Source: Piromyces finnis finn | Lineage: Eukaryota > Fungi > Neocallimastigomycota | NCBI GenBank assembly: GCA_002104945.1 | Contig: MCFH01000014.1 | Coordinates: 372,001 to 436,000 of the forward strand | Direction of reading: 5' to 3' | Length of the DNA: 64,000 bases | Part shown: piece by piece, positions 29,779-62,158 of the stretch | Layout of the letters: the number at the start of each line of letters is the position of its first letter | Position numbering within the stretch: position 1 is the first letter of the stretch | Notes under the pieces: generated by a model | What the model saw: the letters and a program-made list of their open reading frames with translations, nothing else | What the model was told of the DNA's origin: nothing | The model's database searches: none | Position numbers and translations under genes: made by a program

Positions 29779-32738
29779 ATGTTTCAACAAAGATGTATTT
29801 ATGTATTAAAAAAAAAAAAAAAGAAAATTAAAGATATATAATTAAAAGAAAAAAAGTTCAATATTGTAAAAAAAATAGTATTCAAAATATTGAAATGCTA
29901 AAGTCAATATAATATTATTATTTAGATTCGTTATTCTTTTTTTCTTTCTTTCTTTTTTTTTTTTTCAGATTACTTAAAAGAATAATATAATTAAATCAAT
30001 AAATAAATTATGAGTAAAGAATTATTAATTTTCTATTTGAAAACCATTAAAATGATAGTGAAAAAAATGGAAAATGTTTATAAAAATTATATATAAAGTC
30101 TTGTTACATATTAAATTATAGAGAAATGTACTGATCAAATACTTCATTCTAATTTCTTTTATAGCAACCACAAATTATTCTTTTAAGAGAAGGTACTGAC
30201 ACTTCTCAAGGTAAAGGTCAACTTTTATCTAACATCAATGCTTGTATCGCTATTGCTGATACCATCAGAACCACTCTTGGTCCAAGAGGAATGGATAAAC
30301 TTATTGTTGATTCCAGAGGTTTGTAATAAAATAATGAATGAATATAATAGAATTAAAAATTATAAATTCATGTTAGAATAAAACCAACTTAATACATTAT
30401 ATGCGAATTTACAAGATTAAATAATTTAAAAGTTATATTGATAAATTATTGATTGAAAATCAAAACTGTTTTTTTTTTAAATTTTAGGAAAGGTTACCAT
30501 TTCAAATGATGGTGCTACCATTTTAAAGTTATTAGATATTGTTCACCCAGCTGGTAAAGTTTTAGTTGATATTGCTAGATCTCAAGATGCTGAAGTAATT
30601 ATTGTTAAAGTTTTTTAAAAATTTATAAAAAGTTAATTAGATACATATTTTAACATGTATATAATATAATGAATTAAGGTTGGTGATGGTACCACTAGTG
30701 TTTCTTTATTTGCTGCTGAACTTTTAAAGGAAATTAAATCATACATTGAAGAAGGTGTTTCTCCACAAGTTATTATTAAGGGTTTCCGTAAGGCTTCTCA
30801 ATTAGTAAGTATATTTTAAATAAATATTTTTTATTATTTTAAAAAAAAAATAAATAAAAACAAGAATGTTTTATATTAAATATTTATTATATTAAAATTT
30901 AAAATAAAATAAAAAAGGCTATCAACAAGGTTAAGGAATTAGCTGTCCCAATTGAAAAGAGTAATCCAGATGAATTCCGTGAAATCTTAGAAAAGTGTGC
31001 TTCTACTGCTTTATCATCAAAGTTAGTTCACTCTCAAAAGGATTTCTTCAAGAAGATGGTTGTTGATGCTGTCTTAAGTTTAGATCAAGAAGAATTAAAC
31101 GAAAAAATGATTGGTATTAAAAAAATTCCAGGTGGTGCCATGCAAGTATGTATTATATATCATTATTATTATTTTTTAATTTATTTATTTATTAATGCTG
31201 TTTAATTGTATGTATTAATGTTAATTATTTTGTTTTTTTTTTTAAAAAAAAATATTTAAAAACTGAATATAATTCGAAATAAATAGGATTCTCTTCTTGT
31301 TGAAGGTGTTGCTTTTAAAAAGACTTTCTCATATGCTGGTTTTGAACAACAACCAAAGAGTTTCAAGAACCCAAAGATTTTATCATTAAATGTTGAATTA
31401 GAATTAAAGGCTGAAAGAGATAATGCTGAAGTTAGAGTAGAAAAAGTTAAGGTAAAATAAAATAAAAATATTATAATATATAATATATAATGGATAATTA
31501 AAATTTATTTATTAATAAAATAATTATTAAAATGACATATATTTACAAAATATTAAAAGGAATACCAAGCTATTGTCGATGCTGAATGGAAGATTATTTA
31601 TGATAAATTAGAAAAGATTGTTGCTACTGGTGCCAAGATTGTTCTTTCTCGTCTTCCAATTGGTGATTTAGCTACTCAATACTTCGCTGATCGTGATATT
31701 TTCTGTGCTGGTCGTGTATTAAATGAAGATTTAAGTCGTGTTATTAAGGCTGTTGGTGGTCAAGTTCAATCTTCTGTTAATGACATTAAGCCAGAACATT
31801 TAGGTTCTTGTGAATATTTCGAAGAACGTCAAATTGGTGGTGAACGTTTCAACATTTTCCAAGGTTGTCCAAACAGTAAGACTTGTACTTTAGTTCTTCG
31901 TGGTGGTGCCGAACAATTCATTGAAGAAGTTGAACGTAGTCTTCACGATGCTATTATGGTTGTTCGTAGAGCTATTAAGTCTAAGACCATTGTTGCTGGT
32001 GGTGGTGCTACTGAAGTATGTATAAATATATAAGTAGTAAAATTTATTAGTTAACATCGTTTTAATTATATATGTATATATATCTTCTATTATAATTTTA
32101 TTCTAAATAATTTTAGATGGAAGTTTCAAGATATTTACGTGAATACTCCAGAACCATTGAAGGAAAACAACAATTAATTATTGCTGCTTTTGCTAAGGCT
32201 TTAGAAGTTATTCCACGTCAAATTGCTGATAACGCCGGTTTTGATGCTACTGATATTCTTAACAAATTACGTCAAAAGCACGCTACTGGTAATTTTTTTT
32301 TATTAATATATAAATATTTTATTTTGTAATGAATTTGTTTAAAATATCAGCATAACTTATTCATTTTTTATATTTAAATTTTGTTTTATTCAATATTTTG
32401 AAACATTTGAAATACTTATTAATGAATTTTATAAATATAATATATATATGACAATAATTCAAAATATTTGAAACTCTCATAAAAATATAGATGGAAACCA
32501 ATGGTTTGGTGTTGATATTAACAGCGAATCAATCTCAAATAACTATGACAACTTTGTTTGGGAACCAGCTCTTGTTAAAATTAATATTCTCTCTGCTTCT
32601 ACTGAAGCTGCTAACCTTATCTTAAGTGTTGATGAAACTGTTAGAAACCCACAAAGTGAAAAACCAGACGCTGCTGCTAATGCTCGTGCTCGTGGTGCTA
32701 TGATGGCTGCTAGAGGAAGAGGTGTTACTAGACGTTAG
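29779..32738 (+). CDS. CCT7: Chaperonin CCT/TRiC subunit eta (multi-exon; first exon uncertain, clear coding from 30165)
   Basis: [46 protein letters not shown]; VGDGTTSV; [14 protein letters not shown]; ends ARGRGVTRR*. Confidence 0.95.
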
Positions 32739-36400: not shown

Positions 36401-39400
36401 TTGTGTTCTACATTTGATAATACATGACTTAAATTGTTTTGAGATTCACTTTTTAACATAATATTTTCTGTAACCTGATTGATAATACTTTCTTGATCAA
36501 CTCTATTATTAAGTATTTGAGATTGTTTCAAGGAATTATTAGTATCAGTATTATGACGATTATGATTATTATTTTTATTATCATCATTATCATCTATTTT
36601 GTTTGAATTTATTGAATTCTCATCCGATATCCATTTACGTTTATTTCCATGATCATATTCTGAAAAATGTGCCTCTTGTGTTTTATCAGATGACATTTTA
36701 TATTCTAAATCTTTCATTTTAGCTTCATATTCTCTTTTCATTTCTTTTGAAAGTAAATTGATGGCATCTTGTTTAAGTTGTTCTTCATTTTCTTCTTCAT
36801 CTTTTATTTTTTGAAGTTTTTCATTTTCTTGTTCTTTCTTTTTTTGCTTTAAAATTTGCATATTCTTAAAAATTGCGATAAAGATAAATGAAGTAAAAAA
36901 AAAAATATATATTTATAAAAATAAAAAATTAAAAGAAAAAAAAATTAAATGATTAATAAATTAACGATTATCAATAAATTAAATTATTAGTGATATTTAA
37001 TATAGTTTACCTTTAATTCATTATAATACTTTTGTTTTTCTTTTTGCTTTGAAAGATTTTGTTGAAGTTTACTTTCTCTTCTTGTATGTAATCTTTGTTT
37101 TTCCTATTTTTTTTTTATTTTAATAAATAATTATTTTTAATTTATTAATCATTTATCATTTCAACTATTTAATTTAAAAAATAATCCCTATATATTTATA
37201 AAGATGGATAGATTGTAAATTAAAAGTGAATATAAAATCTATTTTTTTTTGAAAATTTACTTTTTTGTCTTCACTTAACATTTCTAATTTTTTTTGTTCT
37301 TCCAATCTTTTCTTTTCATTTTTTATGTTAGTGGTCATAATATGTATATTATTTTTTATCTCTGTTTCATAGATATTTAGTGACTGGTGTAATTTTTCTA
37401 TATTATTTTCATTAAATATCCAGTATATAAATGTTTTTGATTCTTTATAATTATAAAATAAGGGATGATCCGGACAGCATTCTTTTAACAATCTTAAACA
37501 TTTTCCAGAATGGAATAATTTTTCAGCAAGTTTTTCTGGTATAAAACTGGGTATTTGAATATTTATATCAATCTATTATAATATATATATAATTATTATT
37601 ATTATTATTATTATTGTACAAAATAAAATTATTTGATTTTAAATTATTTAATATCTTTAATATTATTAAAAATTTATTATAATTTTTTTTAGTATTTTTT
37701 TTTTTTTACCTGCCATTCATGTGTCCAAAATTGATCACCATTTTTAGACTCTTCTTCCGAAATTGAAGTGGATGTTTGTTTTTCGGATGGGGAGAGAGGT
37801 TCTATGTAGTGAATATAAAATTCATGATGATAATCATTTAAAGAGTAAAATTCATTATCACTTAAATTATCTAAACCAATCCACATTTTAATCCAATTAA
37901 AATAGAGTTCACTAGAATCTTTTAATAATGAATATATCACATATTTAAATAAAGTTTCTCTATAGGTCATTAAATTAGAAGAAAAATCGTAGATACAAGC
38001 GTTTTCATATAAAATAGAAAGTAATTGTGGTGATTTTATTTTTAAGGATTTAAAATCATCGGATGCCTATTTTTTAATTTTAATTATTAATATAAATATT
38101 TATTTTAAATGCAATGCTTTACCAAAAACTATTTTATTTATATAATAATGAAATAATATTATTTTTGACATACATTACATGCACAAAGGCGAGATAACAT
38201 ATTGATTTGATATATAAATTGCTTTAAAACATTATTTAATTCAAGAATATGAATTTTTTCAATGAGTTTAGAATTCATTAATCCAATAATACAGGCTCTT
38301 ACAAAAGAGAGGTAGGATGCCAAAGAATGTGAAAATGATATACCAATTAAACCATATATTCTTTTTTTTTTTATAGACAGGATTATTAAAAGAAAGACAA
38401 TAATAATTTTTAATACAGCATTAAAAAAAAAAAGAGTTTATTCTTTTAGCCATTACTATTAATATGTACATATATTAAATATTATAATATAAATATATTT
38501 ACTCTGGATTTGACTGATATATTTTTGTTAGTTTCTCTAATCTTTTAAAATTTGTTCCCATATCCAAGTAAGTTTGTATATATTTCGATAGACTTTGACC
38601 GTCACACCCAACAATTCTTAAATATTGAATTTTAATATTTTTTATTGAAAATTGTTCTTTTGAGGTATCATAGATAAAATTTCGTGATGATATACCAACA
38701 ACCATATTTAATATATCCTTTTTATCATCATCAAGATATTAAAAAAAAAAAAAAGTTAAAATGTTATAGATAAAAAAAAAATACTTTAATAATAACAGTA
38801 TTAATATTAATATTAATAGTTATTACTTTAATAAGATCTTTTTCTTCCACAATCTTATTATATTGTCCATAAGAATATTGATGATTGTAGTACCTTTTTT
38901 ATTCGTTATTATTTAATATTTAAAAATACTATTAGCTATTTATTTACTTTTTAATATTAATTTTATTATTGAAATGAAATTTTTTAAAAATGGTTTCTCT
39001 CTCTCTCTCTCTCTATTTACATACAATTGATAAACTTCTTCATATAAACTCAAATTCACTTCTGATAGATATGGCGATTGAAAAGGTATTCCATTATCAT
39101 AGGAGTAAACTTTATTATCTTTATCTTTTAAATCCCAATTATTTGATTTTGACTAATATATTTAAAAGTGTTTTATATTAATATTAATAAATACTTTAAA
39201 ACATATATATATATATTATATTTATAAAAAGATAAATTCATTTACAGTTAAAAATGCTTTTTTCTTTGGAATTTGATTCCATAATTGGTAATTATTACCA
39301 CTTTTATAAGCCTCCTTGTGTTCATTTTTCGGTTTATCCTTTTCTATATTATCATTGTAATTAGTATTTTTTTTAAAAGTAGTTGAAAAATTTTGAATGT

Positions 39401-39825
39401 TATTGAAGGTATTGGAAGATGTTGTTTTTAAACGATAATTATTTTTATTTGTATAAGGAAAAGATAAAATAGAAACAAAATCTGTTGGTTCTCGAGGAAG
39501 ACTTGGAAAATAAAGATGCGTGTTTTCTAAATCGTTATTAACTAAATATAATTATGTATTATAAATTGTGCCAATACATATATAAAATATTTTAAAAAGA
39601 ATTTTTTTAATAAAATAAACGTTTTAATTTCTATTTTTTTTTCTTTCTTTCTTTCTTTCTTTCTTTTTTTTTTTTTATCTATTTTAATATATATATATAT
39701 ATTCAATTACTTTCAAATTCACCAAAATATGAATGCTTTTCATTTTCATTTTTTATTTTTGAGAGAATTTCTAACAAATAGTAAGTAACCATGAAAACAA
39801 TTTATGTTAGTATATTTGAAATTTT

Positions 39826-39865
<40 letters not shown>

Positions 39866-40051
39866 CTTTAAAAATTGTAATTGCCAATAATAACTACCAT
39901 ATGAAGAAATATGATTTAATTCATTATTTTTCACATCAGGAATGTTTTCGAATAAATAATTTGGGTAATAATTATAGTATGAATTTTTTTCTTCTTTTAA
40001 TTCTTTGACCGTTTTTCTTTCATTATTATGTAAAAAAATTTCATTTGACAT
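33487..40051 (-). CDS. Gamma-tubulin complex component, GCP6-like (Spc97/Spc98 family); 5' end uncertain
   Basis: PSFIPEKLAEKLFHSGKCLRLLKECCPDHPL resembles the GCP6 GRIP1 segment; a coiled-coil and large low-complexity insert follow; GRIP2 pieces include SFYLMNDG, LNYTPKYPLNIQIT, KFRMEVINFVKQFSYYIHE and HHDYLKCILYRCFL. Confidence 0.8.
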
Positions 40052-41172
40052 TTTTGAAATTTATTTAAAAAAAAAAAAAATTCTCTTTTGATTCTTCTTT
40101 TTCTCTTTATTATCTCTTTTATTATAAAACTCACACCAGTGTATTTAAAATTTTGTATTTACTAATTATATATTGTTATATTTTAATATTTCTTTAAATT
40201 AGGTTAAAAAAATATTTATATATATAAATTGTGTCAAAAAGGAAATTAATAAAATTTCTGAAATTTCAACTATATTGTTTTTATGGGTATATTATATTTT
40301 AATATCTTGATATTATAAGTATGAAATTTAAAGTTTTTTTATAAAAAAAATAAAAAGAAAAATGTCAATCTGAAGATTAAAAATGCATTTCAAAAAAGTT
40401 ATTTTTAAAAAAAAAATGAAAAAAATAGAAAAAATCAAATTTTTTAAATTAATTCAAAAATTTTAATTTTTAATATGTATTAAAACATTTATAATTAAAT
40501 TTTTTTTTCTATTATCATTAAAAAAAAAAAAAGACATTTTTTCATAAACAATTTTACTCAAAAGTTATATATAAGAAAAAGAAGATGATGTTATTAACTA
40601 TTAGAATGAAATAAATAATTAAAATAAGATCAATATATAGGTATATAGATCAATTATAACTTTATTATTAGTTTATAAAAACAAAGTTACATAAGAATAA
40701 GAATATAAAAAAATCTCAAATAAAAAAAAAAAATTAACCCAATGTTAAGTAAAAAAAAAAAAAAACGAATTATAATTTCAATTATATCTTATAATTATTG
40801 TCTCTACTAGAATGAAATATTAATTATTTTTTTATATTTTAAAACAAAAAAAGTAGTTTTTTTTTTTTTTTTTTTACTTTACAAAAATAAGGAAAAAAAA
40901 AAGTGAATAATTTATATAATTAAAATTTGTGTAACCTATAAATTTTTTTTTTTTTTTAATTATTTTTATTTATATTATTGATAGAATAAATAAAAAATAC
41001 AACAATTAAAAGAAATTATTGATATATTGTTAAAATAACTTTATAATAACTTTATGAAATATATAATTCTTGCTTTTTTTTTTTTTTAAAAAAAAAAGAT
41101 AGTATATTAAAATTAAAAAATTAAAAATATATAAATTTTTTCCCTCTCCATTTTTTTTAATTTGCTCATCAT

Positions 41173-43721
41173 TTATCCTTGTAATATTTTCATTAGTTTT
41201 TCATGAGTTATAGGTTGGATTTCAATATAGTCAAGAAGTTTTACATTACCCTTGGTAATTATGGAATGATACCATTTAAAATTGAATTCATTAGCAACTT
41301 GTTCAGATCTCAATCTAATCCATTCTTTTAATCCCCATAAATTGAAATTGCTATGTTCATCTTCAATTTCACTATCAAAATCAGCAACACTAAAATTTTT
41401 TCCATTTTCTCCAATATGAAGATTATTTAATTTAGTAATCCATTCCATTTCTGGTCTTAATCTTTCAGCTAAAGTATCAATCTATTTATTGTAAATAGAA
41501 TTATTAATATATATATTTTATATTTTATTATTTTATAAATGTTATTATATTAAATATTACCTTATGATTCATTGTTACTGGGTTGAAAATATATTTAACA
41601 ATATTAATTAAGTATTCTTCAAACATTCCTTTGGTATAACCACTTTCAAGGAATTTAGTAATAGCAATACGATAATTAGAATCCTTGTCATAAATTCCCC
41701 ACATACGATCAACTAAAGTATTGTAGGATTCAGATGGAAATTTTTCCTCATATTCATTAACCTTGGAATTAATATGACTACCAAAAGTGTAAAGTGGTTT
41801 ATTTTCAAAGAAATAGTGTTTAATATATTTATTTGTGTGGGTACCTTCGTCAGTAATACGTTTTTCAATATTAATTTCAAGTGGATTACTGTATATAACA
41901 TAATTATTTAATAACATCCAATAAGAATTCCAATTTCCAGTTAAATATTGTACCTATTATATAGGTTTAATTTTTTTTTAAAAAAAAAAAATGAATAGGT
42001 TGAGTGTTAAATTTAAAAAACAAAATTAATTATAATTTCTATTATTATATTAAGTATTAATGATAAAAAAAATTCTTAATAACAATAACAATTATAATAA
42101 CAAAAAAAAAAACTTACAGCTAAAGATTTTAAAAATATTGGAATATCGAACCATTTTTTATTGAAAGCGCTAAGTTGTTCTAAATCATTTACATCTAAAT
42201 CATGAAGAGCTTTAGACAATCCATGTAAACCTTCTATTGCATTAAATTTTTTATAATCTTTAACTATCTTAAATTCATTATATAAAGTGGATGGTTTAGC
42301 TCCTTCAGTATAATAGAAATCAGATTTTGGGGAACCTAATATAATTGAACCAATGTTATTAGTACTATTTTTGTTAAATAAATTTATAAATCCTAAGAAA
42401 TGACTAATCATAAAATCTTCAGAAGTAGTATCTTCTTGTAAGATATAAAGTCCTCTTCCATTACCATTACCATCATATACTCTACATGGAACAGTTTTAG
42501 CAGATGGGTTTTCGATAGCTTGTAATATATCACTATAAATTAATTGATGCATTAAAGATGGATCAGTTTCAGTAGTACTAAAGAATAAAGTTTTTGTACC
42601 AAATAATCCTTGACCATCCAACTTTAATTTAAACGAAAAATTGTTATATTTTAAATCTCTACTTTCAGCTTCAATATTCTTTATATATATATATATATAT
42701 ATATTTAATTATTATAAAGAATTTAATTTTTTTTGTTATAATTGAATTTAAAATAAATTATTGAAATATGAAATATAAAAAAAGTTGTAAACATAATTAT
42801 ATTCATTATTATTAATAATATAATAAAAAAAAAATAGAATATAGGTAATAAAAATAATGTAATAAAATAAATAAAATTTAATAGAGTTATTAATATCTAT
42901 TTAATTACTTTTAATCTATATAAAACTAAAATAATATTAGTATATTAGTATAACTACCTGAAAGACGTGAATTGAATCTTTAAGGAAAACAGTTACTTTT
43001 TTCAATATGGTAGAATTACCAGATTTGAAAAAGGAACCATTAACATCATCAATAATAACAGTAGGAATGTAAGATCCATCAAATATTGATGATCTTTCCC
43101 CATTTTTTAACCATCTTCTTCTTATTGGGAAACCAAATTGAGGAATATTTTTTATTGTTATCTTTCTACCATATAATTCATTATAAGTAGTTGTTGTTGA
43201 TTTTGGTAATTTTCTTTCAAACTCTTCATGTATATCATCAACAATATAATGATATCTTGATTATATACATTTTTTTCAATAAAAGTAGATTATATGAAAT
43301 TTTATTGATATTATATATATAAAAAATAAAAAAAATAATTAATAATTATTATTTATAAAAGTTAAGACTAAATCGAAAAATATTAAAAAATAGTTTTTTT
43401 TTTTTCTTATAATAAAAATTTTATACTATTACTACAAATAACAAATATAATAATTTATTAAAAAAATTTTTTTTTTATTTTATATTTTATATTTGGGTAA
43501 TAATACTTTATATCTTCATCGTTTGATACATCTTCTAATATGATTGTATACAATGGAATGGATAAATCTGGTTTTACCATTTTATATTTTAAACCTTCAA
43601 CATCTAAATATACATTAAGAGCTTTAAAGGCAATGACATTAAATGTAACATCTCTACCATATACAATGGATATCCACCTCAATAGACATCCAAATAATAT
43701 AAAACTATCATATAATTTCAT
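41173..43721 (-). CDS. Secreted CotH-family protein (multi-exon), kinase motifs degenerate, no dockerin
   Basis: Signal peptide then RDVTFNVIAF; FERKLPKSTTTTYNELYGRKITIKNIPQFG; DPSLMHQLIYSDILQAIENP; GLYILQED; YLTGNWNSYW; IVKYIFNPVT; WGLKEWIRLRSE. Confidence 0.85.
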
Positions 43722-45051
43722 TTTATTTATTTTTTTTTAATAAATATCGTTCAATATATATATAATATATTTAAAAACAATAATATTAAGAAAGAAAAAA
43801 AAAAGTTTAAAAATATTAAAATAAAAAAATTAAAAAAATTTTTTTTTTCTTTTTTTTCTTTTTTTAAAAAAAAAGGATAATTTTTTAAAATAATAAATAA
43901 ATGAAAAATAATAATAATAATAATAACTTTCAAAAGAAAAATAGATAGATCAAGTTATTTAAAGTTAATTATTATTATTATTTTTTTTTTTTGATAAGCA
44001 ATTTATTTTACCAATTCAATTGAATTATTAGAATTTTTATAATTATATGATTTAAAGGGAACTGGGAGAAAAATTATACTTCACAAAGTACCAGCCAGTT
44101 TAATTATATTTGGTAATAAATAAAATTTTAAATTTAAATTGAACTTTAATTATGGTATAAAAGAAAATCATGACGATAATGTCATTAATATCATTAATAG
44201 TATGTAGTATATCCCAATAGACAATCATTTCTTTTATTGTTATTATTAATTGCAATTGTAATTTAAATTCTCCCCTTTAGTTCTTTATGGAAAACTCTTA
44301 TCATGTTTTTTTTTATCAAATATATATATATATATTATTTTGCTTCTACGATCATCCTAGAGTATTTTTATTGTTACAACCCTTCCTATTCAAACTTTTT
44401 TTTATTTTATTTTTTTTATTAGTAATGGACCATAAATATTTAGGATTTTCTTTTAACATATTGCACTAATTTTCATAACTTTTTTTTTTTTTATATTTTT
44501 ATTTTTATTATAAATATTGTTTTTAAAAAAAGAGGGTTTTAAATACTTATATAAACTATAATACATATTTTTATTTCATTAATATTAATTTTTATTATTT
44601 TTTTTTACTTTATTTTTCTTTTAAAAATAAAAATTTTTTTCCTAATAAAATAAAAATATTATATATAAAATTTACATTTTTTTTATTTTTTTTTTTTTAA
44701 TTAAAAAAAATTATTATAATTACTTTTTGTGTTTAAAAGTAATAAATTTCTTAAGATGTAAAAATAAACTTTTTTATTAGTTTATTTATGATACAAATTT
44801 ATTAGGTGTATTTTGTAATATTTTTTTATATCTATGGAATTGAAAAATAAAAATATATTTTTAATATATTTTCTTTATTCTATATTTTTTTTGTAGTTGT
44901 TATTATTATTTTAATTTATATATTATTATTTATGATTATTGATGTATTTAAATATATTTTAGTTTCTTGTATTTTTTTTCATAATCATAACTTTCACTTG
45001 AATATTCTCAAAATTTCAATTTATGTCCGCGTTTAATAATTTGTTAGTTGT

Positions 45052-47606
45052 TTATAAATTTAATTGTTCTTTGAATAATTCTTGAGCGTTACTGTTGACA
45101 AGATCAGCAGCACTCTTAATACCACACCATCCTCCAGCTGGTCTGGTAGCATCGTTTTCATACTTTTCTTCGTATCCGATAACACCATTTTCGAGGATGT
45201 AATCTAATTTATCAGATTCACAGCATGGTAAACCAAAGTCTTCAGCCCAGCATTTCTTGTTCTTAATAATACCACACCATTCCTTTGTGTCCTTAGTAAC
45301 ACCCCACCATCCACTTTCATCAATGTATTCAACAATACTTTCACCATTGTTACAGCATCTGTAACCAAGTTCTTCACTCCAACAAACCTTTTCTTCTTCT
45401 TCTTCAATAGCTTCAGCATTAGTAGCCCAAGCAAGAGGTGGATTTAACTTAATAGTCTTAGCTTCTGAGTCGCCCTTTTCAAAGCTAACCCAAGCAACTA
45501 AACGATCCTTACCTCTCTTTTCGAAAGCAATTTTGCTTTCATTCTTGTTCTTGTAAGCATTTTGTGGAAGAGTAATTGGAATCTTACAATCCTTTTCAAT
45601 AGACTTTGGTGAAATCTTAATAGCAGTAACATAATCACCTTCAATAACAGCAGACTTTTCAATATCACAGTAAGTAATTCTGTTGTATCTATCAAGATAT
45701 AATTGGGCTTGATCATCAAGCTTTAATGAAGTAACTGGCCAGTTTACAAATTTGGTGTATTTTTCAAGAACAGCATTACTCCATTTTTGAAGTAAACTTT
45801 CCTTTTCTTCAAGATCGTGACTACGAAGGTTAATTTGATGGAATTGGTGAGCTTCATTTCTTAAGCTTACCATTAAGTTAAGAGTACGGTCAACTTCATT
45901 GTTAATGAATCTTTCCCAAGTTGATTCACCAATTTCATCTTCGTATATAAGGTTGTAAATGTAAGTGTTTTCTTCAACAGTACTACTAGTGTAGTAAACT
46001 TCAGTTGGAGTACGTGGAATAATTGGGAATCCTTCATAGTTGCTGCTTTCCATTGTAGTAAAGAATGGTAAGTATGGGTTTTCTTGGTTAATAAGAGTTG
46101 GACGAGATAAATCACCAGTACCAGATTCAATACCGTACTTCTTAAAAACGTTGAGAGCATCAGCATTTCTTAAACCAGAAATTTGTGGAGTAACAATAGA
46201 TTTTCCGGAATAGTATGGTTTGTCATAGATATTTAAAAGCTTAGCCATTTCAATGTTAGTTTTGATTTCATTTTCAACATCAAAAGTAGTAGCTTCATCT
46301 AAGTTTTCGTGAGTAAAAGTGTGAGAAGACCAGAAGAAATTCTTACTGTTTTCTTCTTTATCGAAATAGGCAAATAAACTATCATTTTCAAGGAATTCCT
46401 TATCATATGAAAGAGTGTAGTTACCTTCTGGCCATCTGCTAACACCCTTTCCTGGAACTTTAACGTATTCAATATCACAATATCTTTCACCATCAACTTG
46501 AAGAGCAATAGCTGGATTAATGACAGCAAGAACACCATTACCATTGAATGCAATTTCACATTTAATAGATGAACCTTCTGGAAGCTTGTTAACAACAGTT
46601 TCTTGCCAGTTCTTTAAAATTTCGAAATCTTCAACAGTAGAACGGTAAGAGTTGTAGGTACTTTCTAATTCATTGGTTTCGTAATTTAAGAGACCAGTGG
46701 AAAGGAAAACATCATCGATATGTGGAGTAAAAGTAACACGTCTTTCACCAGCATATAATGAACGGGTAACCCATGAAATCCATAAGTGATTTAACATAAC
46801 ACTGTTAATAGACCAATCACCAAATGCAATATAGAAAGATAATCTTTCACCATCATCATTTTTAATGTAGGCAGCAACAACAGATTCTTCCTTAATTTCT
46901 TCATTTGGCTTTAAAGTAATGATTGGGGTTGCAATTTTATCATTTTCAATCTTACCTGGAACATGGTATAAACTATTAAGATAGTAAAATAAAATTTTTT
47001 ATTTAAAATAAAATTTATAATTTAATAATTTATTACAAACAAGTATACTCTATAATATTTTTTTAAATATACTTACCCTCTAGTATCAAGAGTAGCTGTA
47101 GATTTAACACCAGCTTCATTGAATATGGATTTAGCAACATCATTATCAGCCATAACCATTTCTTGAGTACTAGAAACACCCCAAATACTTGGATCAAAAA
47201 TAGATGTACCGAAATTAATACTTGGAGTATCATCAAGAGCTACAATTCTTACACCATATTTCTTTTGGTATTCATAAAGATAATCCCATTGCTTACTAGT
47301 TAAAATACTGTTCCATAATCCAGTATCTTCGAAATAAACTGTAAGATCACCATTACCAAGGACAACACCATAGTATTTTGGTTGGTTATCTTCAGTGTAT
47401 AATGGTAAGTCACCTTTAAGTGGGTTTTTATAATTGTATTCTAAATAATCATATTCAATGGAGTATGATTGAAGTGATTTTATTATTGAATCTGGGAAAC
47501 TTGTGGACAAAACTAAAAGTTTCATTCCAAGTTGGACTTCTGTTGCAAGACATCCAACAATAAAAGTAATAAAAGTTAACAAAATAGATTTATTTATAAA
47601 GTTCAT
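45052..47606 (-). CDS. Secreted Agd3/CE18-like polysaccharide deacetylase with two C-terminal fungal dockerins
   Basis: Signal peptide MNFINKSILLTFITFIVGCLA; one intron near 46975-47075 (RG/LYHVPG); YAGERRVTFTPHIDDVFL, FFWSSHTFTHENL, IVTPQISGL, IIPRTPTEVYY, AHQFHQINL; then two CW..xGYxCC...WCGI modules. Confidence 0.85.
45118..45384 (-). other. Tandem non-catalytic dockerin (CBM10-like) domains
   Basis: CWSEELGYRCC...WWGV..TKEWCGI (45268-45384) and CWAEDFGLPCC...GGWCGI (45118-45252). Confidence 0.85.
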
Positions 47607-50519
47607 TTTGATTTTTATTTTAATTAACAAGGAAATAAATATGTTATTTTTTGTATTTTATTTTTTTTTTTTTTTTTGATTTATTTGTGTTGAATTTTTT
47701 TTTTTTTTTTGTTAATAAATAATTGTTATATATATATATTATTTTATATTATATTATTGTTGTATTATAGTAATAGTATATTATAAATACTAAAACTATT
47801 CTTTTTATTAATACACAATAAGTAATTATAATGTCAACTTTTTTTTTAAAAAAATAAAAAAAAAGAAATTTATATATATAATTTAACAAAATTTTAAAAG
47901 TTTAAAATATGTTGAGAAATACTGCTTCTTTTATATGAATATTAATTTTTATATTCAATGATATATAAAATTAATAAATAATAAAATAAAGAAAAAAAAG
48001 CTTATTTATTAAGGAAGATTAGTGTTATTAAAAAAGTATATATATTTAACCCTATATACCATGTTATTTATTGATAATAAATTTAAGGATTAAGTAGAAT
48101 AGAAACGTTTAAAAGAAATAGTATATATCAATAATAAATTAATAATATAAATATTATTCTATTCTAATATATAATAATTTAATACAATAATAAATAAATT
48201 AAACAAGAGAATACGAAAAAACAAAAGAATTATTAAAATATAATGAATATAATAGGAAATTTTAATTTATTTTATAATAAATTAAATTAAATAATAAAAT
48301 ATTAATTTAGGTTATACAAAAATATAAATGAAAAAATTAATGTAATTTAATATATTTGAATATATTTATTTAATATATATTCATATATTATTCAAACATT
48401 TAAATTCTGAGATTTACAATATTAAATAGTATTAAAGTTTATATATATGAAATAAATTTCAACCTAAATAATATATTTTTTAATTATAAATCAATATAAA
48501 TCAATGAAATAAATAATTTCTACAATATATAAATAATATATAAAATCGAAAAAGATAATTAAATTTATAATATTAATATATTAGTTAATTAATAAATATA
48601 TAATTTCAATATAAAACAATAAAATTAGTATATTAATATCATTTCATTTTCAATATAAAATTTAATAAATTAATTTTTTTAAAGATATTGAAATAAACTT
48701 TTATTAATATATTATTATACAAAGAAATAAATTAAATTTTTATAATAAAATAATAACAATAAATTAAATATATTAATAAATTAATACATATAATAAACTA
48801 ATAATAATTTACATAGCATAATATTAATAAACAATAGTAAAGATAATCATTCTAAATTTTTTATACTATGGATTCAAGCGGGTTTCAATAGGCATGGTAA
48901 AATTATACTACCATTTTTAAATATTTCCTTAACGAAATGGCAAAGTCGATGTATTGGAATTTAATATTTAAGTATTTATTTTTTTTTCATTATTCATCCA
49001 TTTATATTTAAAATTAATTCATTATTTATTCGCTATATGGTAAAGATTAAAATAAGTCCTAGTGTATTAATAAACTTTTAACAAAGAATATCTTATCATA
49101 TGTATTAATTCTATTATAATTATAATGAATGGATATGCTATTCCTATTATTGCTGTTGCTATATAGAGTTCATTAATTGTATATATACTTTTCTTTTATT
49201 ATAAAGATTATTAGAAAGGGCTACTTTTTTAGTGGTAAAAAATAACAACAACTAAAATTGCTTAACATTTCTTCTTACTAATTTTTACTTCTTACAGCAA
49301 CAATAAGCAATAAAATTTTAATTTAAAGTACAATATATAAAGTTAATGTATTGGCATCTATTGAAATATATTAAATAATATAAAAACACAAGAACAATAT
49401 TTCATGCTTTGGAATGTTGAACGGAAGGTGTGTGTAGCGAAAGAATTAATAAAAGTAGAATAATTTTACTATTATATTATATTGAAAATAATAATAATTA
49501 AAGTTTAATTTTAAATTAAAAATAAATTTTATTTTATATAAAATAAATTAAAATTTTATATTAAATCAAAATATTCTTCAAAAAAAAATGAATGATTTTT
49601 TTTAAAAAAATGAAAAAGTAAAATTTCTATTTAATTTTTATATATTAATTTACGGCAAAAAAAAACCAAAAAAAAAAAAAAGACAAAAGTTTGCCATAAC
49701 AAAAATATATTTTATAAAAGAGAAACTCATTTAGTTTCTAATAATAATAATAATAGAGTTTTATGTTAACTAAATAAAAATAAAAAGATTATCTGAATAT
49801 TTTTAATCCCTATTTTATATTTTATTAATATGACATCATAATACATTCAAAATAATTAAAGTTTACTTTTTATCAAAATTCATGGCTTTTTCTTTCTATA
49901 CATTTTTTGTTTGTACAACAATAAAAAATACTATTTTCCTAACCTTTTAAATGCCTCCATTTTATATACCTCTATTTTTTTATTAATTAAAATTTTTTTG
50001 AATAACAATAATTATACCTGTGTTACCTAAATTATTATCCAATAATAAACAAGAAAAAAAAAAAGTAAATTGAAGAAATTTATATATATTTAAAAAAGTT
50101 CGATAATTTATTTGGAAGGTCGTTAATATATATTTCATTTGTAGGCCTAAAGTAACACTTTTTAATCAACACAATAGAAATAATAATAAATAAAATAATT
50201 GTTTATACTTATTTAATATAAATTCCTCTTGTGTTTTTAAAAAGAAGCTGATAATTTATAATTTCATTGATTTATCCTTTTTTTTTTTTTTGGATTTTTA
50301 TTATATAAATAGAGTTTCTATATTCTTAACACTTCTTTTCTTTTATATTCACTATTTTCATCACAAAATTCATAACTGAAGAAGTTACTATCAGTAGAAC
50401 AATGATAAGTATTTATTATTATTTATGTATACTTCATGTACTTATGCATTACTAATTAATTTAATCCAATATTGGATCATATGAAATCACTTTATTATAA
50501 ATTATTACATAGTTAGTTC

Positions 50520-51800
50520 TGCAATTTTTTTTTCTGTTCAATATTAATAAAAGATTTTTTCTTCGTATCAGCAAAAACAGATGGCATCAGAAAATTAATT
50601 ATTATTATTATTAATAATCAAATTTATAGTATAACTGAAAACTTTTCAGTAGAATTTATAAGAGAAATTGAAGGTAATTTCCATTTAATATTGGATTGCA
50701 AATTTATTAATAATACTTTTATCCCTTTTGATATTTTATACCGTGAATTGGATTTAAGAAGTTACTCTTACAAAGAAAGAATAAACATTCTTAATTCTTT
50801 AGATTACCTTAAATTTGAAAAATTATAGTTAAAAAAGTTATAAAATGCTGTAAAATTTTTTTCAAGATATTCAAACATTTGTATCATCGGAATTAGAAAA
50901 TACCACACCAAACGATGGTATTGTCATAACCAGCGGAGCATCAACCTATTTTGAAAATGCTAAAGCTTATAAAATTAAAACTATTTACACAGTAGATATC
51001 GAGTTTAATGGACGCTATTTTTTAGCTAGGGAGCATAGAATGAATATATCTTTTAAATTTATCAGTAGAAAAATATAAAAATATATGTATAATAAGTTTA
51101 AAGTACAAAATCACAAAACTACAAACCCTATTGAAAAGTATTATTATAGAAAGAAAATAGAAATTATAGAAGGCGTACCATGCAACAAAAAAGTAGTTAA
51201 ATATTATCATATTAAAAATAAAAAAATAAATTTTATTATAGAGTATGATTTAGATAATAAAAAATATATTAATTTTTGCAAAGATAAAATCAAATAGCAT
51301 AAAAATATTTAATAGTGTTTTATTGGTTTCCTATCAAAAAATCAATATTGATATTTTTTCACCTAAATCCAATGTTTTAATGCGTAAATACCACAATATA
51401 ATAAAACAAAATATTTTAAATGAATTTAGAGGAACTTTATTAGATATCGGTACAGGCAATGGTGGTGATATACACAAGTGGAATCATTTCCCGTAAGATC
51501 GTTTGTGTTGAACCAAACCATGAAAAATTAAAAATTTAAATAAAAGAATTTCAAATTCAGAAATTAAAAATAGAATCAAAATTATCCCGAATAATATTCA
51601 AGAAGAGATGTTAAATGATCATTTTGATATTACCACATGTTTTTTTGCATTAAATGGTATGTCTTATACCGACATAGCATAAACGATAAAAAATATCAAA
51701 AATTGTATAAGAAAAACATTTATTGAATTATTTTTCGATTCTTCAATTTAGTGAAAATATAACTTCAACATCACTAATTTATCGAAAATGTATTATTAAT
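50520..51800 (+). pseudogene. Virus-type mRNA capping enzyme (guanylyltransferase + guanine-N7 methyltransferase)
   Basis: FVSAKTDGIRK (KTDG 50574-50585), LILDCK, FIPFDIL, RINIL, PNDGIVI (50914), YKIKTIYTVD (50968-50997), FCKDK, then MRKYHNIIK (51380), LLDIGTGNGGDIHKW (DIGTGNGGD 51443-51469), IVCVEPN, FDITTCFFALN. Several stops and frameshifts. Confidence 0.9.
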
Positions 51801-52321
51801 GAAAATAATAAAATTATAAATACAACCGATAAATTATCATTAACCTATCTGTTAAGTTGCCTTAGATATACGTATGGTGAATGCGATAATATAATGTATG
51901 TAAATATTCTTCTTTTCTTAAAGGCATTGAATTTTCAAATAATATTCCTTAAAGAAAAAAGAAAGACAATTAAGGAAAATATAGTAAAATATATAATTAT
52001 TATTACTTTTATAATTATTATAATTATTTTTATTATTATAATCATTATTATTTCATCATTTATAATATTTAAGATTTATTTCAATAAAAGGATTTATATA
52101 AAGATTTTTATTATTTAAAACATATATATATATATATATTAAAAAGAAAATGTAAAAAAAAAAAGAAATCTTTAGAAAATATAATAAAATAAATTAAAAA
52201 GATTATTTAATATTAAAAGTACCAATTTAAATTCAAAGGGTAAATCAAATAAAAAAGTGAAGTTAAATTTCAATTCAAGTATACGTTTTCATTTGGGAAT
52301 TAATAGTTCACTGTTGTTAAG

Positions 52322-53010
52322 ATGTATGAATTAATTCATACTTTCGATTTCAGTGAAAACCCTGAACTGAAAAATAAAATATTGAAAATATTTCTCAAAA
52401 ATATACCTGTTTTACCCATAAATATGAGACTTTCAATTATGGATTTCAACAATATCATAATTCATAATAGTATAACATCCATGTATATAAGACTGTTAGA
52501 TTTAAATCATCAGTTTCAAAGTAACACCAATATTATTTCGTATGGTGGATATGGATTAAAAGTATTCAATCTATATAAAAAAATTCTTGGAATTTATAGT
52601 TCCACCGATACTACGGAAAATTCTGATAAAAATTTTATTAAACAAAGATTATCGGGAAAAACGGATTTTTAAAAGTATGTGTATAGTCAAAAGACAAAAT
52701 TTTTGTCTTAGTAGTGTTATTGTGCCAAATATAAATATTCCCTTGGATAAAATATTGATATCAAAAAAATTTATAGATCAATTAATTCCCCATGGATATA
52801 AGCCAAATGACTATGTAATTATTAATAGACAACCTACACTCCAAACTACTTCTATATTATCTGTTCGCTCCTTTCTAGCAGTCGGACCATCCAAATTAAT
52901 CCTCTAATAGCCAGCGTTTTTCAAGCTGATTTTGACGAGAATGAAATGAATTTTTTTGGCTGCTGGGAGAAGAATCTAAAAAAGAATTAATCCTGTTGTT
53001 TTCATGCTAT
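52322..53010 (+). pseudogene. Reduced multisubunit RNA polymerase largest-subunit (beta-prime/Rpb1-type) fragment
   Basis: IPVLPINMRLS (region B), KQRLSGKT / KRQNFCLSSVIVPN (region C), YVIINRQPTLQTTSI, then after a frameshift TIQINPLIASVFQADFDENEMN (52922-52951; decayed NADFDGDEMN) and LGEESKKEL. Confidence 0.9.
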
Positions 53011-53543
53011 TTAGTGCAAAAGCCATTTCGGTTCGAAAGTTCATTAACTAAATTAAATCGTTGGTGGTAGAAGTTCCACATCCTATTTATGAATACAATG
53101 AATTTAAAAATTCTAAATGTTTTTGCAAGGCCCGAGAACTTGCTTGTGAACTTGACTTTACTATTCAATGGTAGTAAAATTATATTCATTTTATTTATTT
53201 CACGATATTAAAATCATTTTAAAAGATAGGATTCTATTATATTAAATATATATAATTACAGATAAATTATATAAAGTTTATTTATGTATAATATATATGT
53301 ATAATCTCTTTCTATATCATTTTTAATTCATAACGTTCAATACAAGATGTATTAATTCTACATTTTAAGTTTAATGAAATTTAAAATTTAAAAATTATAA
53401 AAATTTTTATTGATTAAAAATCATTAAAATTTAAAATTTAGAAAGTTTGAGATTGATAAATCGAAAATAATTCTCAATAGTAGTACCATTCTTTTTTATT
53501 AAATAATTTATACTAAGCTGAGCTTTTACAATTGTTTTAATTC

Positions 53544-53694
<151 letters not shown>

Positions 53695-54446
53695 AATATC
53701 AATAATTAAACAATTAAATAAAAATTTTTAATAATAACAATATTATTTAATAAAATGTTTGAATTTTTTTATCTAAGAACCAAATTGTTTAATTATTTTA
53801 AATAATTTCTACTTCTTACAAAGATTGATATAAAAATTATTTATTATTATTATTAATTAATAAAAGTTAACTATATCATATTTTCTTTAATAGTATATTA
53901 TATAACTTATTAATATAAGTAGCACAAAATATTGTCCACCATTATATTAATTTAATTAAAATTTATATTTAAAAATATATTTATATTAAATTTTTTATAA
54001 ATATTTTAAAACTTTATAAATAATTATTATTACTTTTTATTTATTATTAATTTAAATAATTAAATAATAATAAATTAAGGTAAATAGATTTATAATGTCT
54101 TTTTTTTTTTATTTTTCCTTTATTTTAATTAAATAATATTAATTAAGGTTACTGTAGTACAAATCATATCCAAATTATGGAAAATTTTTGGTAATTTAAT
54201 TCAATAATATTTTCCTTTATATATAATAAATTTGTTAAACAAAAATTTTTTAAAAAATATGTTATTATTAAATTCCTTTTTTTTAAAAAAAAATAAAACA
54301 AACTATTGAATTAAACAATTAAATATTTTATAATTGTTTGATCACTTTATATATTTAATATATATTTTATTTATTATATATTTTTATTTTATATTATTTA
54401 TTTTATAATATTTATTTTATGTTTTTATTTATTTTTGTAATATCAG

Positions 54447-55024
54447 TAACTCCCTTACATATAGCCTTATTTTTTTATAATAAAGATATTATAGATATAT
54501 AAATTAGGTATGGAGCTAAGATAAATATAAGAAATAGCATAGGAGCTACGCCAATACTTAAATTATGTGAGGTTTATTGGTATGATAATATTAATATGGA
54601 AGAAGTTTTAAAATTATTTATTAATTATGGTACTAATATTTATATAAAGGATAACGATAAAAACACCGCATTATATTATGCTGTTAGAGGATTTAAAGAA
54701 AAGGCAATAGACTATTTATTGAAAAATAATTTTGATGTTAATATGCAAAATATCAATGGTGATACACCATTACATATGGCTTGTAAAGATATAAGGGGTG
54801 ATGGAGAAATGATGCAATATTTAGTAGAAAGAGGAGCGGATGTCAACATAATCAATAATAAAAGTGAGACTCCCTTGTTTTGTTTATGTAACTGTACTTA
54901 TAAAGATGAAGGTATGCCATTATTAGTAGAAAGTGGAGCAGATATAAATATAGCAAATAATAAAGGTGAAACACCATTGTTAATATCTTGTAAATATGGA
55001 AAAGAAGATTTATCTAAGAAATAA
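54447..55024 (+). pseudogene. Ankyrin-repeat gene, probably disrupted
   Basis: TPLHIAL, GATPIL, NTALYYA, GDTPLHMAC, ETPLF, GETPLLISC; in-frame TAA at 54500-54502 and an abrupt stop mid-repeat at 55024. Confidence 0.75.
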
Positions 55025-55557
55025 AAAATTAAATGCTGATACAGCAAAACGGTATAATGCAGATAAATCATTTTTTGATAATAAAACTAGAGAAGAATAT
55101 TTAAAAAAGAATTCTGAAAATTATGAAAACTTTAGAAATAATTATGATCAATAATAATTGCAAAATTTATCAGAAGAAAGCAAAACAAAAATAATTATAA
55201 AAGAATATATTAATAGTAATATAGAAGATTATAAGGAATATAGTTACTTGATCATTTATTTGAAGAGTGTAAAAATTATAAAAATATGGATGAGGACAGT
55301 AGAAATAGTAAACCAAAAAAAGAATATGAAAAAACAATTAAACCTAAAGTCCTTAAAGAAAATATTAAAAGCTAATTAGATATTAAAATGTCAAGCTTGG
55401 AATAAATAATTAAAGTTATTAAAAATTATAAATTGAGTAATGAAATAAAAAAAGCAAAATAAAGTAGAATTTGAAATCATTGGAAATTTAGCATCACAAA
55501 ATTTGATAGAAAAAATATATGCTGTTAATATGTATGATGGAACTACAGAACAAGCGC

Positions 55558-55603
55558 AACATTATAAATTTGCAACATTATAAATGTGCAAATTTATAAT
55601 GTT
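55558..55603. repeat. Perfect 17-bp inverted repeat with 12-nt spacer
   Basis: aacattataaatttgca (55558-55574) and tgcaaatttataatgtt (55587-55603). Confidence 0.9.
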
Positions 55604-56590
55604 ACAAGAATTCAAATTATTTATCACATGAATAGATTAAAGATATATTTAAATACGACATCGATGATATGATAGGAATATGTAATGATTTATTAGATCG
55701 TCATAGATAAATTCACTGTCTTTTCTTTTTATCATTTTAAAAAAGTTTCTTTTTTGTTATAGATTATGAATGGTTTTGTATATAACATTCTTTCTTTTAT
55801 GGAAATGAATTAATATAACTTTTGGATCTTAGTAACCTATTTACTATATAGAAATATGCTGGAACTATTTTATTTTGAGTATTGTTTTTTGTAATGGATT
55901 ATATGTATTACTATACATTATAATTATTATTTAAAAATAATTAATATTCTTTTTAAAGGTAAATGTGGGATGTATTGTATGATTTAAAATAAATGAATGA
56001 TAATGAAACTAAATAAAATTTAAAATGAAATTTAGTGTTTTTTTTCTTCTTGCTACTGATTTATTATTTTTTATTATTTTACTTTAAAAGTTTAAAGATA
56101 ATAGCATAAACTATCTTTTTTTTTAATTCAACAATATAATAAAAGAAAAGGTATGATTTACTTTAATATTTAAATCCTTTTTTTTTTTTTTTTTACTTTA
56201 ATATATTATTTCAATTTATTATAAACAATTGAAATGAACAAAATTTCTGTTTAAATTAATCCATTTTTAATACTAAAAAATAAATGTAACCAAAATTTAA
56301 AGTTTTAAGACTTTCATTTATAAAATAAAAAGTACATATATTATTATTATATTCTAATATATATTATAATTTATTAATTGAATAGATTTAAAATAATTAC
56401 CATTTACAACATTTACAATAACTACTTTATTATAAAATCAATCAAGATATATTTATAATAATAAAAGGTTCTCATTAAAGAAATTGTATTTTTTAATATA
56501 TATATATATATTTATTTCTTAGTTTCTAATTATAATTATCATTATCTATATTGTAATGATTATTGCTATATTGCTATTGTTGTCATTATT

Positions 56591-59446
<2,856 letters not shown>

Positions 59447-60848
59447 TCTATATTACTGTTTTATTTGGTATATATATCTATATATATAAATTATTTTGGG
59501 AGGGGGGTTCTAAAAAAAAAAAAAACTAATTAAAAATAGACAAAAAAACACAATCTAATAGATTTTAAATGTAGTTAAAAGTATGATATTTTTCTATAAA
59601 AAAATATTTATTATTTAAGTTAAACCTTTTATCTTTTTTTCTAAGAAACTTTTTTTAAAAAAAACAATCAAATATAATTATATGAATAATAGGTATATAA
59701 ATATATATCTAAAATACATCTAACAATGTTTTTAATCATAACAGATCAACCAATTGATATAATTAACATTTGACTCTGAAATACTAATTATTTTCAATGC
59801 AACGATTGATTATAAGAAAGAAGGTAAAAAGTTAATTTATTATTAAAAAAAGTCAATTATCCTTAATTAAATAAATCATGATATTTAAAATGTATCCAAA
59901 ATTTTTTATAATTTCATTATCCTTAATTTTTAATGGTTTTCTGTAAATTAGTTATTTTTATAGAAAAGTGAAAAAAAAAAAAAAAAAATATCTTTTAAAG
60001 TTCAAGTTGATTACCTTTAATTTGTATCATTTTTAAAAATTATTGATTTTAATGGTAATGAGTTCAGAATGATTTAAACTATGACTTTTTTTTTTCCCTT
60101 AATATTTTATAAAAAAAAAAAAAAAGCATTAACATATATTATATAAAATAAAAAGATGTGTAGGTGTACATTTTATACTTTTTTATCTTTTACTAATCAT
60201 AAAAATTAAATTTATTTTTTTGTCTTTCACACTAAAAAAAAAAAGAGGATCTAATTTATATTTTTATAAATATTTAAACTTTTAAAATTGTACATGAAAT
60301 ATGATAAAATAAAGAATAATAAAAACTATTATAAAGTATATATATATTTTTTCTATTATTTGTTTTTATCCTATATATAAAAAAAAAAAGTTTTATAAAT
60401 GTAAAATTTTGATAATGATAATAAAAAAATTATGAATCCTATTAAATATAGTGTATATTTTTATATTTATTTAAATTATATATATAAAAGAATACAATTC
60501 TTTTTATTATTATTATTTTTATTATTATCTTTTTCGGTATAACAGCTTATTTTTTATGAATACTAAAGGTTAAATAGCATTCTGTTAATTATGAATAATG
60601 AATATTAAATATAATCTTAAATATATATATATATGAAAATATAAAGAATTTTATATTTTTAAAATCTATGAATTTCTATGATTCATTTCTATTATTAAAA
60701 AGAATGAAGTATATTATAACAATAAAAATTATATATTTGCTTTGTTTTATATTATTTAATAAATAATGATTTTTCTTTTATTTTTTTTTTTTACTTTTTT
60801 TGTTTCTTTAGAAGAATTTTTTTTGTTCAGAAAAAAAAAAAGAAAAAA

Positions 60849-62158
60849 CTATATTACAACACAGAAATTATTCCGTGATACTCCATCATTTAATAATACT
60901 TTTGGAAATTTTGGTTTTGCTTTTTGAATCTTTTGAATATTAATATCCTTTATCTTCCGGAATAGGTAATAAACTAATTTTCTGGAAACATGTGAAGTCA
61001 CTAGGGTAAAACCTAAATAATCCAAAATCTTTTTAAAATGTTCATCTGTACAATATCTTGAATTATTAACACAAGGATTTGGTAAAACAATGAATAATAA
61101 ACCATTTTTTACTAAAAATTTATTTGCTCTTGCTATCATAATGCCTATTCATTAATTTTTTGTTTGTTTGTTTATTTGTTGTTTTAAAAGAATTTCATAC
61201 ATTGATGAAATGTTAATTTTTGTAAAATACATATTATATATCAGTATTAATAATTAAATTATTATTACTTAATATAAATAAAAATTTATATTAAAATTTA
61301 TATATTCCTATGTATATGTAATTTTAATAAATACCTCTTTTTTTATTATCTCCTACAAAATTAATAACAAGGGATAAACATAAAATTTGATATTTTTCTG
61401 CAGGAATTGGGTATTCAAAAAAGTCTGCTTTTTCTACTAAAGAATCTTGTGGGTTTAAATCTATTGCTTTTGCCTTTATCCATTTACCTTCTTTACTATA
61501 ATTTGAACCTGAAACAGCTCCAATATCTAATAATGAATATGTTTTTGACTATTTATAATATGGGAATTTTATTTAAGTGCAAAATTAATTAAATAAAAAA
61601 AAAAAGAAATTAAATTAAAAATGTGAAATTCATTTTTCATAAATTTTGAATTCAATTCGTATATATACATATATATATTAAAATATAATTATTTGAATTA
61701 TTTTCATTAGAAATATATATATATTTTAATTCATTTATATATATAAATGAATTAATATTTTTATGCCATTATACTATTAATATTATACATACATTAGAGG
61801 GTTTTCCTGCTATATAATTATCATCATTTTCAAATTCAGTTGGTTTTTTTAACGATAATAGTTGCTTAATAAACCATTTAGAAGAATCTCCACCACGACG
61901 TTTATCTTGACCTAAAAGACTAGCCTTTTGATAGGCATCTAATCCACCCATATGTTCTATCGTTTTTTCTATTTCATTTAATCTTTCAATAACCTCAGAG
62001 TTTTGTGGTTGTTGTTTCAACCTTTCTTTTTCTTTATTTAATACATGAAATTTTGATATCAATGCTTGTGAAAATTGATGAGTTTTCTTTTTACGAATAG
62101 TTTTATTATTGGTAGTAGCTACCACTGGTTTTGGTAATCTTTTTCTTTTCAGCGTCAT
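60849..62158 (-). CDS. BMT2: 25S rRNA adenine-N1 methyltransferase Bmt2 (three exons)
   Basis: LISKFHVL; MGGLDAYQKASLLGQDKRRGGDSSKWF; LLDIGAVS; IDLNPQ; ADFF; LCLSLVINFVG; LPNPCVNNSRY. Confidence 0.9.

Follow-up and report, generated by a model that had tools for sequence, protein, structure and literature searches.

A probable giant-virus-like scrap in Piromyces finnis: a truncated, frameshifted poxvirus-D1-like capping pseudogene beside a broken Rpb1-N gene

The closest described systems are the endogenous 'fundsalphaviruses', found when fungal genomes were screened with PolB (Gong, Zhang & Han 2020, Virus Evol 6:veaa008; PMC7017919). According to the available parts of that paper, they occur in Neocallimastix californiae, Piromyces finnis, Anaeromyces robustus, Piromyces sp. 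E2, and Pecoramyces, and their PolB groups with that of Pithovirus. Their common genes are listed as PolB, D5, a D6/D11-like helicase, 'SAM/AdoMet_MTases', RPB2, RPB5, RP1n, and RP1c; the gene orders given there include UDG-RP1n-AdoMet_MTases-RPB2-D5-POL-RP1c, and RP1n adjoins AdoMet_MTases in the elements of P. finnis and N. californiae. The word 'capping' occurs neither in the main text nor in the supplement of the paper (PMC7017919). It was also the single source in which the literature search found the term 'fundsalphavirus', and searches for work tying Neocallimastigomycota or anaerobic gut fungi to Nucleocytoviricota or NCLDV gave nothing relevant. Anaerobic fungi go unmentioned in the available parts of a preprint on an egovirus (10.1101/2024.03.23.586382) and of a paper on Mycodnaviridae (PMC13533422).

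The locus described here lies in a window (the whole stretch of DNA that was analysed, 64 kb long) of ordinary fungal nuclear genes, many of them intron-split. Host genes in it include two CCT chaperonins, an Arf GTPase, gamma-tubulin complex components, Bmt2, and a RING protein; the whole window is AT-rich (G+C about 12-32%), and no tRNA genes were found in its 64 kb. Two broken genes, adjacent, on one strand, and together 2.4 kb long, sit between an ankyrin ORF (54503-55024) and an Agd3-like gene (45052-47657) whose CBM_10 dockerin is of a sort characteristic of anaerobic gut fungi; Piromyces finnis is the source of the named proteins closest to this region. With a probability of about 0.9, the stretch from 50544 to about 51985 is a truncated and frameshifted poxvirus-D1-like capping pseudogene beside a broken Rpb1-N gene, the pair being a decayed scrap of a giant-virus-like element of the 'fundsalphavirus' type. 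The features of the window that matter here are as follows.

2274-5585, minus strand: retrotransposon remnant, reverse transcriptase spread over several frames (RVT_1, E 9e-26)
7560-9492, minus strand, and 30903-32735, plus strand: two different intron-split CCT/TCP-1 chaperonin genes
42076-42708: CotH-like ORF
45052-47657, minus strand: two ORFs that encode an Agd3-like deacetylase (CBM87, CE domain, C-terminal domain) bearing a CBM_10 fungal dockerin
50544-51288, plus strand: guanylyltransferase part (nucleotidyltransferase and OB domain) of the capping pseudogene, corresponding to residues 300-538 of the intact protein P0030
51289-51985, plus strand: cap N7-methyltransferase part of the same pseudogene, corresponding to P0030 residues 539 to about 772
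51986-52205: AT-rich low-complexity spacer of 220 bases with TTA-type repeats, matching neither P0030 nor P0005
52206-52989, plus strand: Rpb1-like N-terminal-half pseudogene fragment ('RP1n'), corresponding to residues 111-370 of the 717 of P0005

P0030 is an uninterrupted protein of 810 residues and an intact relative of the capping relic. Its tblastn matches in the window have E-values of 9.4e-82, 1.3e-70, and 3e-23 over 50544-51911, and the first relic piece by itself finds three proteins, P0030 among them, at 74-87% identity (E 1e-34 to 7e-37); chance could by no means produce such agreement. A frameshift-aware alignment, which places 50544 to about 51985 on P0030 residues 300 to about 772, gives an identity of 72% (352 of 487 aligned residues). 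Five frameshifts cross the guanylyltransferase part (50823, 50855, 51052, 51113, and 51286) and four the methyltransferase part (51491, 51528, 51743, and 51981); together with one in-frame stop at 51680, these nine shifts of 1-2 bases are the disablements of a gene that an earlier note on this DNA had already taken to be broken. The ORF track hides the gene because its pieces fall in different frames, in agreement with the description of it in that note as almost invisible there. The match begins abruptly at residue 300 of 810, residues 1-299 of P0030 having no counterpart in the relic; the last 40 or so residues are absent as well, and the match is weak past about 51911. In the interval given earlier, 50520-51800, the end of the methyltransferase has to be moved to about 51911-51985. 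A triphosphatase part, which the note had failed to recognise upstream, was not found in read-through six-frame Pfam scans of 47700-50543 either. The capping relic retains the guanylyltransferase and cap N7-methyltransferase parts only. One further tblastn match of P0030, at 25513-23411 (19% identity), is compositional, falls in a low-complexity ORF of 844 residues, and was set aside; this ORF is one of several long ORFs (409, 475, 370, and 844 residues) without a Pfam match in 16924-25867.

All motifs named previously lie on the plus strand in the order and at the places reported. The nucleotidyltransferase series comprises motif I KTDG (50574-50585), motif III ILDCK (D at 50694, K at 50700), motif IIIa FIPFDIL (50718-50738), motif IV DGIVI (from 50914), motif V KIK..TVD (50971-50997), and a motif VI-like CKDK (about 51277-51289). 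About 30 codons on follow MRKYHN (51380-51397), the SAM-site LLDIGTGNGGDIHKW (51437-51481), VCVEPN in another frame, and FDITTCFFAL. Each of these motifs maps to an invariant or nearly invariant column of the family of intact relatives. Among the 130 family-invariant residues that the relic covers, 13 are altered, including motif III E351K (50700) and motif VI R535C (about 51277); the motif I lysine is retained. Of the motif residues conserved at 90% or more in 38 sequences, the relic keeps all except E351K, and the motif VI arginine that it has exchanged for Cys is invariant in the 17-sequence family alignment. Single pieces of the relic match PF01331 (E 0.0048, 50517-50825) and PF03291 (E 0.0051, 51254-51493) in Pfam. 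Against the PDB their matches are weak but concordant, to a capping enzyme (E 0.04) and to cap methyltransferases (E 0.6-1.6); the piece 50854-51294 found no match there.

The neighbouring relic corresponds to P0005, an Rpb1-N-terminal polymerase subunit of 717 residues, with which it shares 205 of 256 residues (80%). It is interrupted by four frameshifts (52242, 52664, 52875, and 52952) and three stops (52250, 52301, and 52304), and the metal-binding catalytic QADFDGDEMN has become QADFDENEMN. RNA_pol_Rpb1_2 is matched twice in Pfam (E 1.1e-6 and 3.6e-4), and the best of 29 relatives, named Piromyces finnis, is 90% identical. Both relics are predicted to be without activity. The spacer between them occupies the place of the missing capping-gene end, the intergenic DNA, and about 110 initial polymerase codons, likely as the result of a deletion. 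A TTA-rich tract at 51961-52086, within this spacer, is like one further downstream, where a long (TTA)n run at 53537-53700 ends in (GTT)8 and yields ORFs of poly-I/L/Y or poly-N, depending on the strand.

The authenticity of the breaks has to be considered. The capping gene could be intact in the organism if the frameshifts were long-read assembly errors in A/T runs, and several shifts do stand beside A or T homopolymers (e.g., 50823, 50855, 51528, and 52952). Those at 51491 and 52875, however, lie outside homopolymers, the stops at 51680, 52301, and 52304 arise by substitution, and E351K, R535C, and DFDEN alter catalytic residues. Such errors would also have to account for the loss of 300 N-terminal and about 40 C-terminal codons in a window in which long host ORFs are uninterrupted. 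Short contigs of public runs that match with zero differences span both truncation points (5' at 50054-50563, 3' at 52885-53092) as well as the five shifts at 50823, 50855, 51286, 51981, and 52952, with the qualification that one of these runs may be the window's own assembly sample, so that its exact contigs may not be independent. Assembly error is accordingly a very improbable source of the breaks. Paralogous contigs with the same organism label differ from the window by 3.5-7% and carry letters missing from it at 50857, 51048, 51529, 51745, 52662/52664, and 52875; in-frame paralogues therefore coexist with the broken copy, and since their DNA is 93-96.5% identical to it, the relic is not ancient.

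A live host gene of viral origin, split by introns so that its exons mimic frame-shifted pieces, would look similar at first sight, as host genes in the window have short exons in different frames (e.g., the chaperonins at 7560-9492 and 30903-32735). The coding match runs on unbroken through every frame change, which therefore is no intron: 1-2 bases are involved every time, and not an insert of 50-200 bases. Stops inside the aligned coding sequence, and the lack of both the start and the end of the gene, make this explanation hardly credible. Reading TGA as W, an alternative genetic code, failed to open the frames of the relic and was rejected. The decayed state of the gene is also visible in a FastTree phylogeny of 43 rows (none dropped; only columns occupied in at least half of them retained). 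P0030, two P. finnis proteins, and the window copy together form a clade of four (support 100), in which the window copy has the longest end branch (0.19 vs 0.09-0.11), as expected after loss of constraint.

The identity of the enzyme was derived from the intact family, which has 36 members (P0030 and 35 relatives) of about 460-950 residues. Their sources, besides metagenomes, are P. finnis, Anaeromyces robustus, Neocallimastix californiae, N. lanati, and N. 'constans', and all three genera have the family in multiple copies. To judge from Pfam matches to 17 fungal members, Pfam by itself is ambiguous and makes no capping-enzyme call: a generic methyltransferase is found in 17/17, DNA_ligase_A_M in 9/17, mRNA_cap_C in 8/17, and PF01331 in 0/17. 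Four distant relatives (P0068-P0071, 888-1064 residues) carry PF01331, PF03919, and PF03291, and hhalign relates the family to them with a probability of 99.85% (E 9.1e-31, residues 299-664). A profile combining the family with these four retrieves capping guanylyltransferases (E 6.6e-13 to 1.4e-5) and cap N7-methyltransferases (about 1e-5) from the PDB, and DNA ligases only at E 0.38; the strong matches depend on the inclusion of the four, as a fungal-only profile yields weak methyltransferase matches only (E 0.004-0.03). The alternative that the earlier note had allowed for, namely that profiles would assign the pieces to a ligase and an unrelated methyltransferase, is hence disfavoured overall: Pfam by itself is ambiguous, but the combined profile and the structural comparison both indicate a capping enzyme. 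Residues conserved at 90% or more in 38 sequences are K310, D312, G313, R315, D349, E351, F360, D361, D422, G423, K441, K443, and D449.

The structural comparison used an AlphaFold model of P0030 built from 38 sequences (pLDDT 76.4, pTM 0.68), which replaced a poor earlier model from 17 sequences (pLDDT 50.8). In Foldseek, the nine best matches of the model are vaccinia D1 chains (E 2.6e-26 to 1.1e-23, about 1000 columns), and the best match after these has an E-value of 6e-12. In VIA-align, the methyltransferase domain is closest to cap methyltransferases, with Z-scores of 22.9 for Ecm1 (rmsd 2.6, 217 aligned), 21.6 for Abd1, 21.3 for the C-terminal domain of pNP868R, 21.2 for the D1 methyltransferase, and 21-22 for that of RNMT, against at most 18.7 for generic methyltransferases; human guanylyltransferase scores 20.2 vs 17.5 for DNA ligase. 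In the ESM Atlas, the neighbours (0.94-0.99) of both proteins belong to Nucleocytoviricota: capping enzymes in the case of P0030 and Rpb1 in that of P0005. These comparisons show the intact family to be a D1-like multidomain capping enzyme with a fold of three domains and uphold the first description of the gene as a virus-type fused guanylyltransferase-methyltransferase.

Intact members start with a domain of about 300 residues that contains a near-invariant FELEFRL and the conserved D227, E238, and N244. It has no profile match, neither in Pfam (17 members) nor in hhalign against the distant relatives. In the P0030 model its pLDDT is about 55-79, and the alignment with D1 starts at residue 5-8. 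The conserved motif pair FELEFRL / FEID resembles that of triphosphate-tunnel enzymes, and on the model, which is of moderate confidence in this part, the domain is predicted to be a triphosphate-tunnel triphosphatase as in D1. In the intact enzyme, this domain would take the gamma-phosphate off the viral transcript, GMP would be bound covalently by Lys310 of KTDG and passed on to the RNA, and the C-terminal domain would methylate guanine N7 last. The enzyme would serve the RNA polymerase of the element itself.

The two relics can be equated with RP1n and AdoMet_MTases of the fundsalphavirus type because P. finnis hits lie on contigs of the published lengths and the relics show the same adjacency: P0001, P0004/P0031, and P0029 are found on contigs of the sizes given in the available parts of the fundsalphavirus paper (168386, 127315, and 246453 bp; PMC7017919). 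The D1-like capping identity is a refinement of a gene published as a SAM-dependent methyltransferase (PMC7017919). Since the published 'SAM-methyltransferase' is a D1-type capping enzyme beside an RNA polymerase, the elements encode a unit of cytoplasmic-style transcription and capping. The assignment to such an element rests on the two genes and their adjacency, as no other element gene (PolB, D5, RPB2, UDG, helicase) was found in the 64-kb window. No viral family was revealed in the flanks (47700-50543, 52990-54503, 39000-45052, and 55000-60851) by read-through Pfam scans in six frames, whose sensitivity is so low that the CotH gene of the window was missed by such a scan. The fragment is probably the remnant of a larger insertion that was later deleted down to 2.4 kb. 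Nearby, the ankyrin-repeat ORF at 54437-55024 (plus strand; Ank_2, E 4e-45) contains an in-frame TAA at 54500-54502 across which the repeat runs on upstream (..TPLHIALFFYNKDIIDI, stop, IRYGAKIN..). It may be another damaged gene, and it could be part of the insertion; one of the P. finnis elements in the available part of the published data has an Ank_2 gene within a few genes of its RP1n (Gong et al. 2020, PMC7017919).

A rival to the giant-virus-like element as the source is a cytoplasmic linear plasmid that lacks a capsid (the 'virus-like element' of the yeast pGKL2 type). The pGKL2 capping enzyme is not known to have a methyltransferase domain, which counts against a plasmid, as does the methyltransferase fused to the fungal capping enzyme in the manner of D1. 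No inverted repeats flank the relic, and a search for terminal or long repeats bounding it returned low-complexity matches only. In favour of a plasmid are the contigs of about 42.4 kb on which close intact relatives lie. Linear plasmids also have genes for a capping enzyme, a helicase, and RNA polymerase that derive from nucleocytoviruses, and early-diverging fungi have been suggested to carry such plasmids, one contig from a chytrid among them (PMC13348850, as far as the available text goes). The gene lists in the available parts of the fundsalphavirus paper include no linked capsid gene (PMC7017919), which would suit a plasmid too. The elements around the two genes, however, are described there as holding D5 primase-helicase, UDG, separate RPB2, RPB5, and split RPB1, besides the Pithovirus-grouped PolB, a gene set unlike that of the plasmids (PMC7017919). 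A linear plasmid is thus an unlikely source, and the scrap is better read as giant-virus-like.

Relatives of the two genes were also sought in contig collections. Searches of viral contigs, made with two pieces of the window and with both protein alignments (capping, polymerase), gave no relatives, and neither did a scan of prokaryote genome contigs. The metagenome scan gave four contigs of 1.9-2.6 kb (L001-L004), each with the polymerase gene alone, which is complete in L002 and L003 but, in L001 and L004, lacks its 5' end because the contig stops there. Their G+C content (28-32%) is well above that around the relic (about 20%; 18-27% over 40-64 kb), and no poly(A) tail was seen on any of them; they may be transcripts or short assemblies.

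The intact relatives are of wider interest than the locus itself, which is of little weight as a dead 2.4-kb fossil of an already known viral kind. The longest contigs of seven proteins at least 90% identical to P0030 measure 42490, 42473, 42416, 42384, 39579, 28339, and 27066 bases, those of 42384-42490 bases coming from several assemblies, and P0005 is likewise on a contig of 42490 bases. In another lineage, the capping proteins are exactly 820 residues long in 11/13 cases, and the polymerase proteins 734 residues in 9/11 and 735 in 2/11. The 820-residue capping and 734-residue polymerase clusters have contig sizes in common (23104, 19518, 16908, 15595, and 15169 bases), which hints at a discrete element with conserved linkage of the two genes. 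Among Neocallimastix copies, the divergence in the FastTree phylogeny is 0-0.03 changes per site. The number of intact copies, their near-identity, and the recurrence of contigs of about 42.4 kb raise the question of whether gut fungi carry an active small relative of giant viruses. A tentative and rather doubtful answer is that the close intact relatives form a replicon or mobile element of about 42 kb, with a D1-like capping enzyme and a split RNA polymerase, which is possibly a capsid-less descendant of a giant virus and still active. If true, a miniature giant-virus descendant of gut fungi would still be active in herbivore guts. The recurring contigs of about 42.4 kb could equally be integrated copies assembled between the same repeats.

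Compared with the fundsalphavirus elements, the locus shares the host group (Piromyces, Anaeromyces, Neocallimastix) and, according to the available parts of the description, the premature stops and frameshifts (PMC7017919). It differs in that the window copy is a 2.4-kb scrap without their PolB probe gene.

With vaccinia D1 (PDB ID: 4CKB, 4CKC, 4CKE, and chain O of 8P0J), intact P0030 shares the domain order and a near-full-length fold, residues 8-807 of the model aligning with 5-844 of the chain (VIA-align, Z 21.3), as well as the lysine-containing motif I KTDG. Sequence identity between D1 and P0030 is only 12-17%, however, and the window copy is broken and devoid of the first domain. Cellular and chlorella-virus enzymes likewise have KTDG as their motif I, so that KTDG alone is not viral.

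ASFV pNP868R and the giant-virus enzymes (P0068-P0071) likewise fuse guanylyltransferase and N7-methyltransferase and have the motifs LMRKYHN, LLDIGSGxGGDxxKW, and VEPN in common with the fungal family. The fungal family is shorter (about 800-950 residues), and its N-terminal 300 residues remain unaligned to the giant-virus-like proteins in hhalign. The cellular fungal enzymes Cet1, Ceg1, and Abd1 have the same catalytic folds (Ceg1, E 1.5e-9; Pce1, E 6.6e-13; Abd1, Z 21.6). They are separate polypeptides, whereas the gut-fungus enzyme is a single fused chain, whose genes occur in multiple copies and in linkage with viral polymerase genes.
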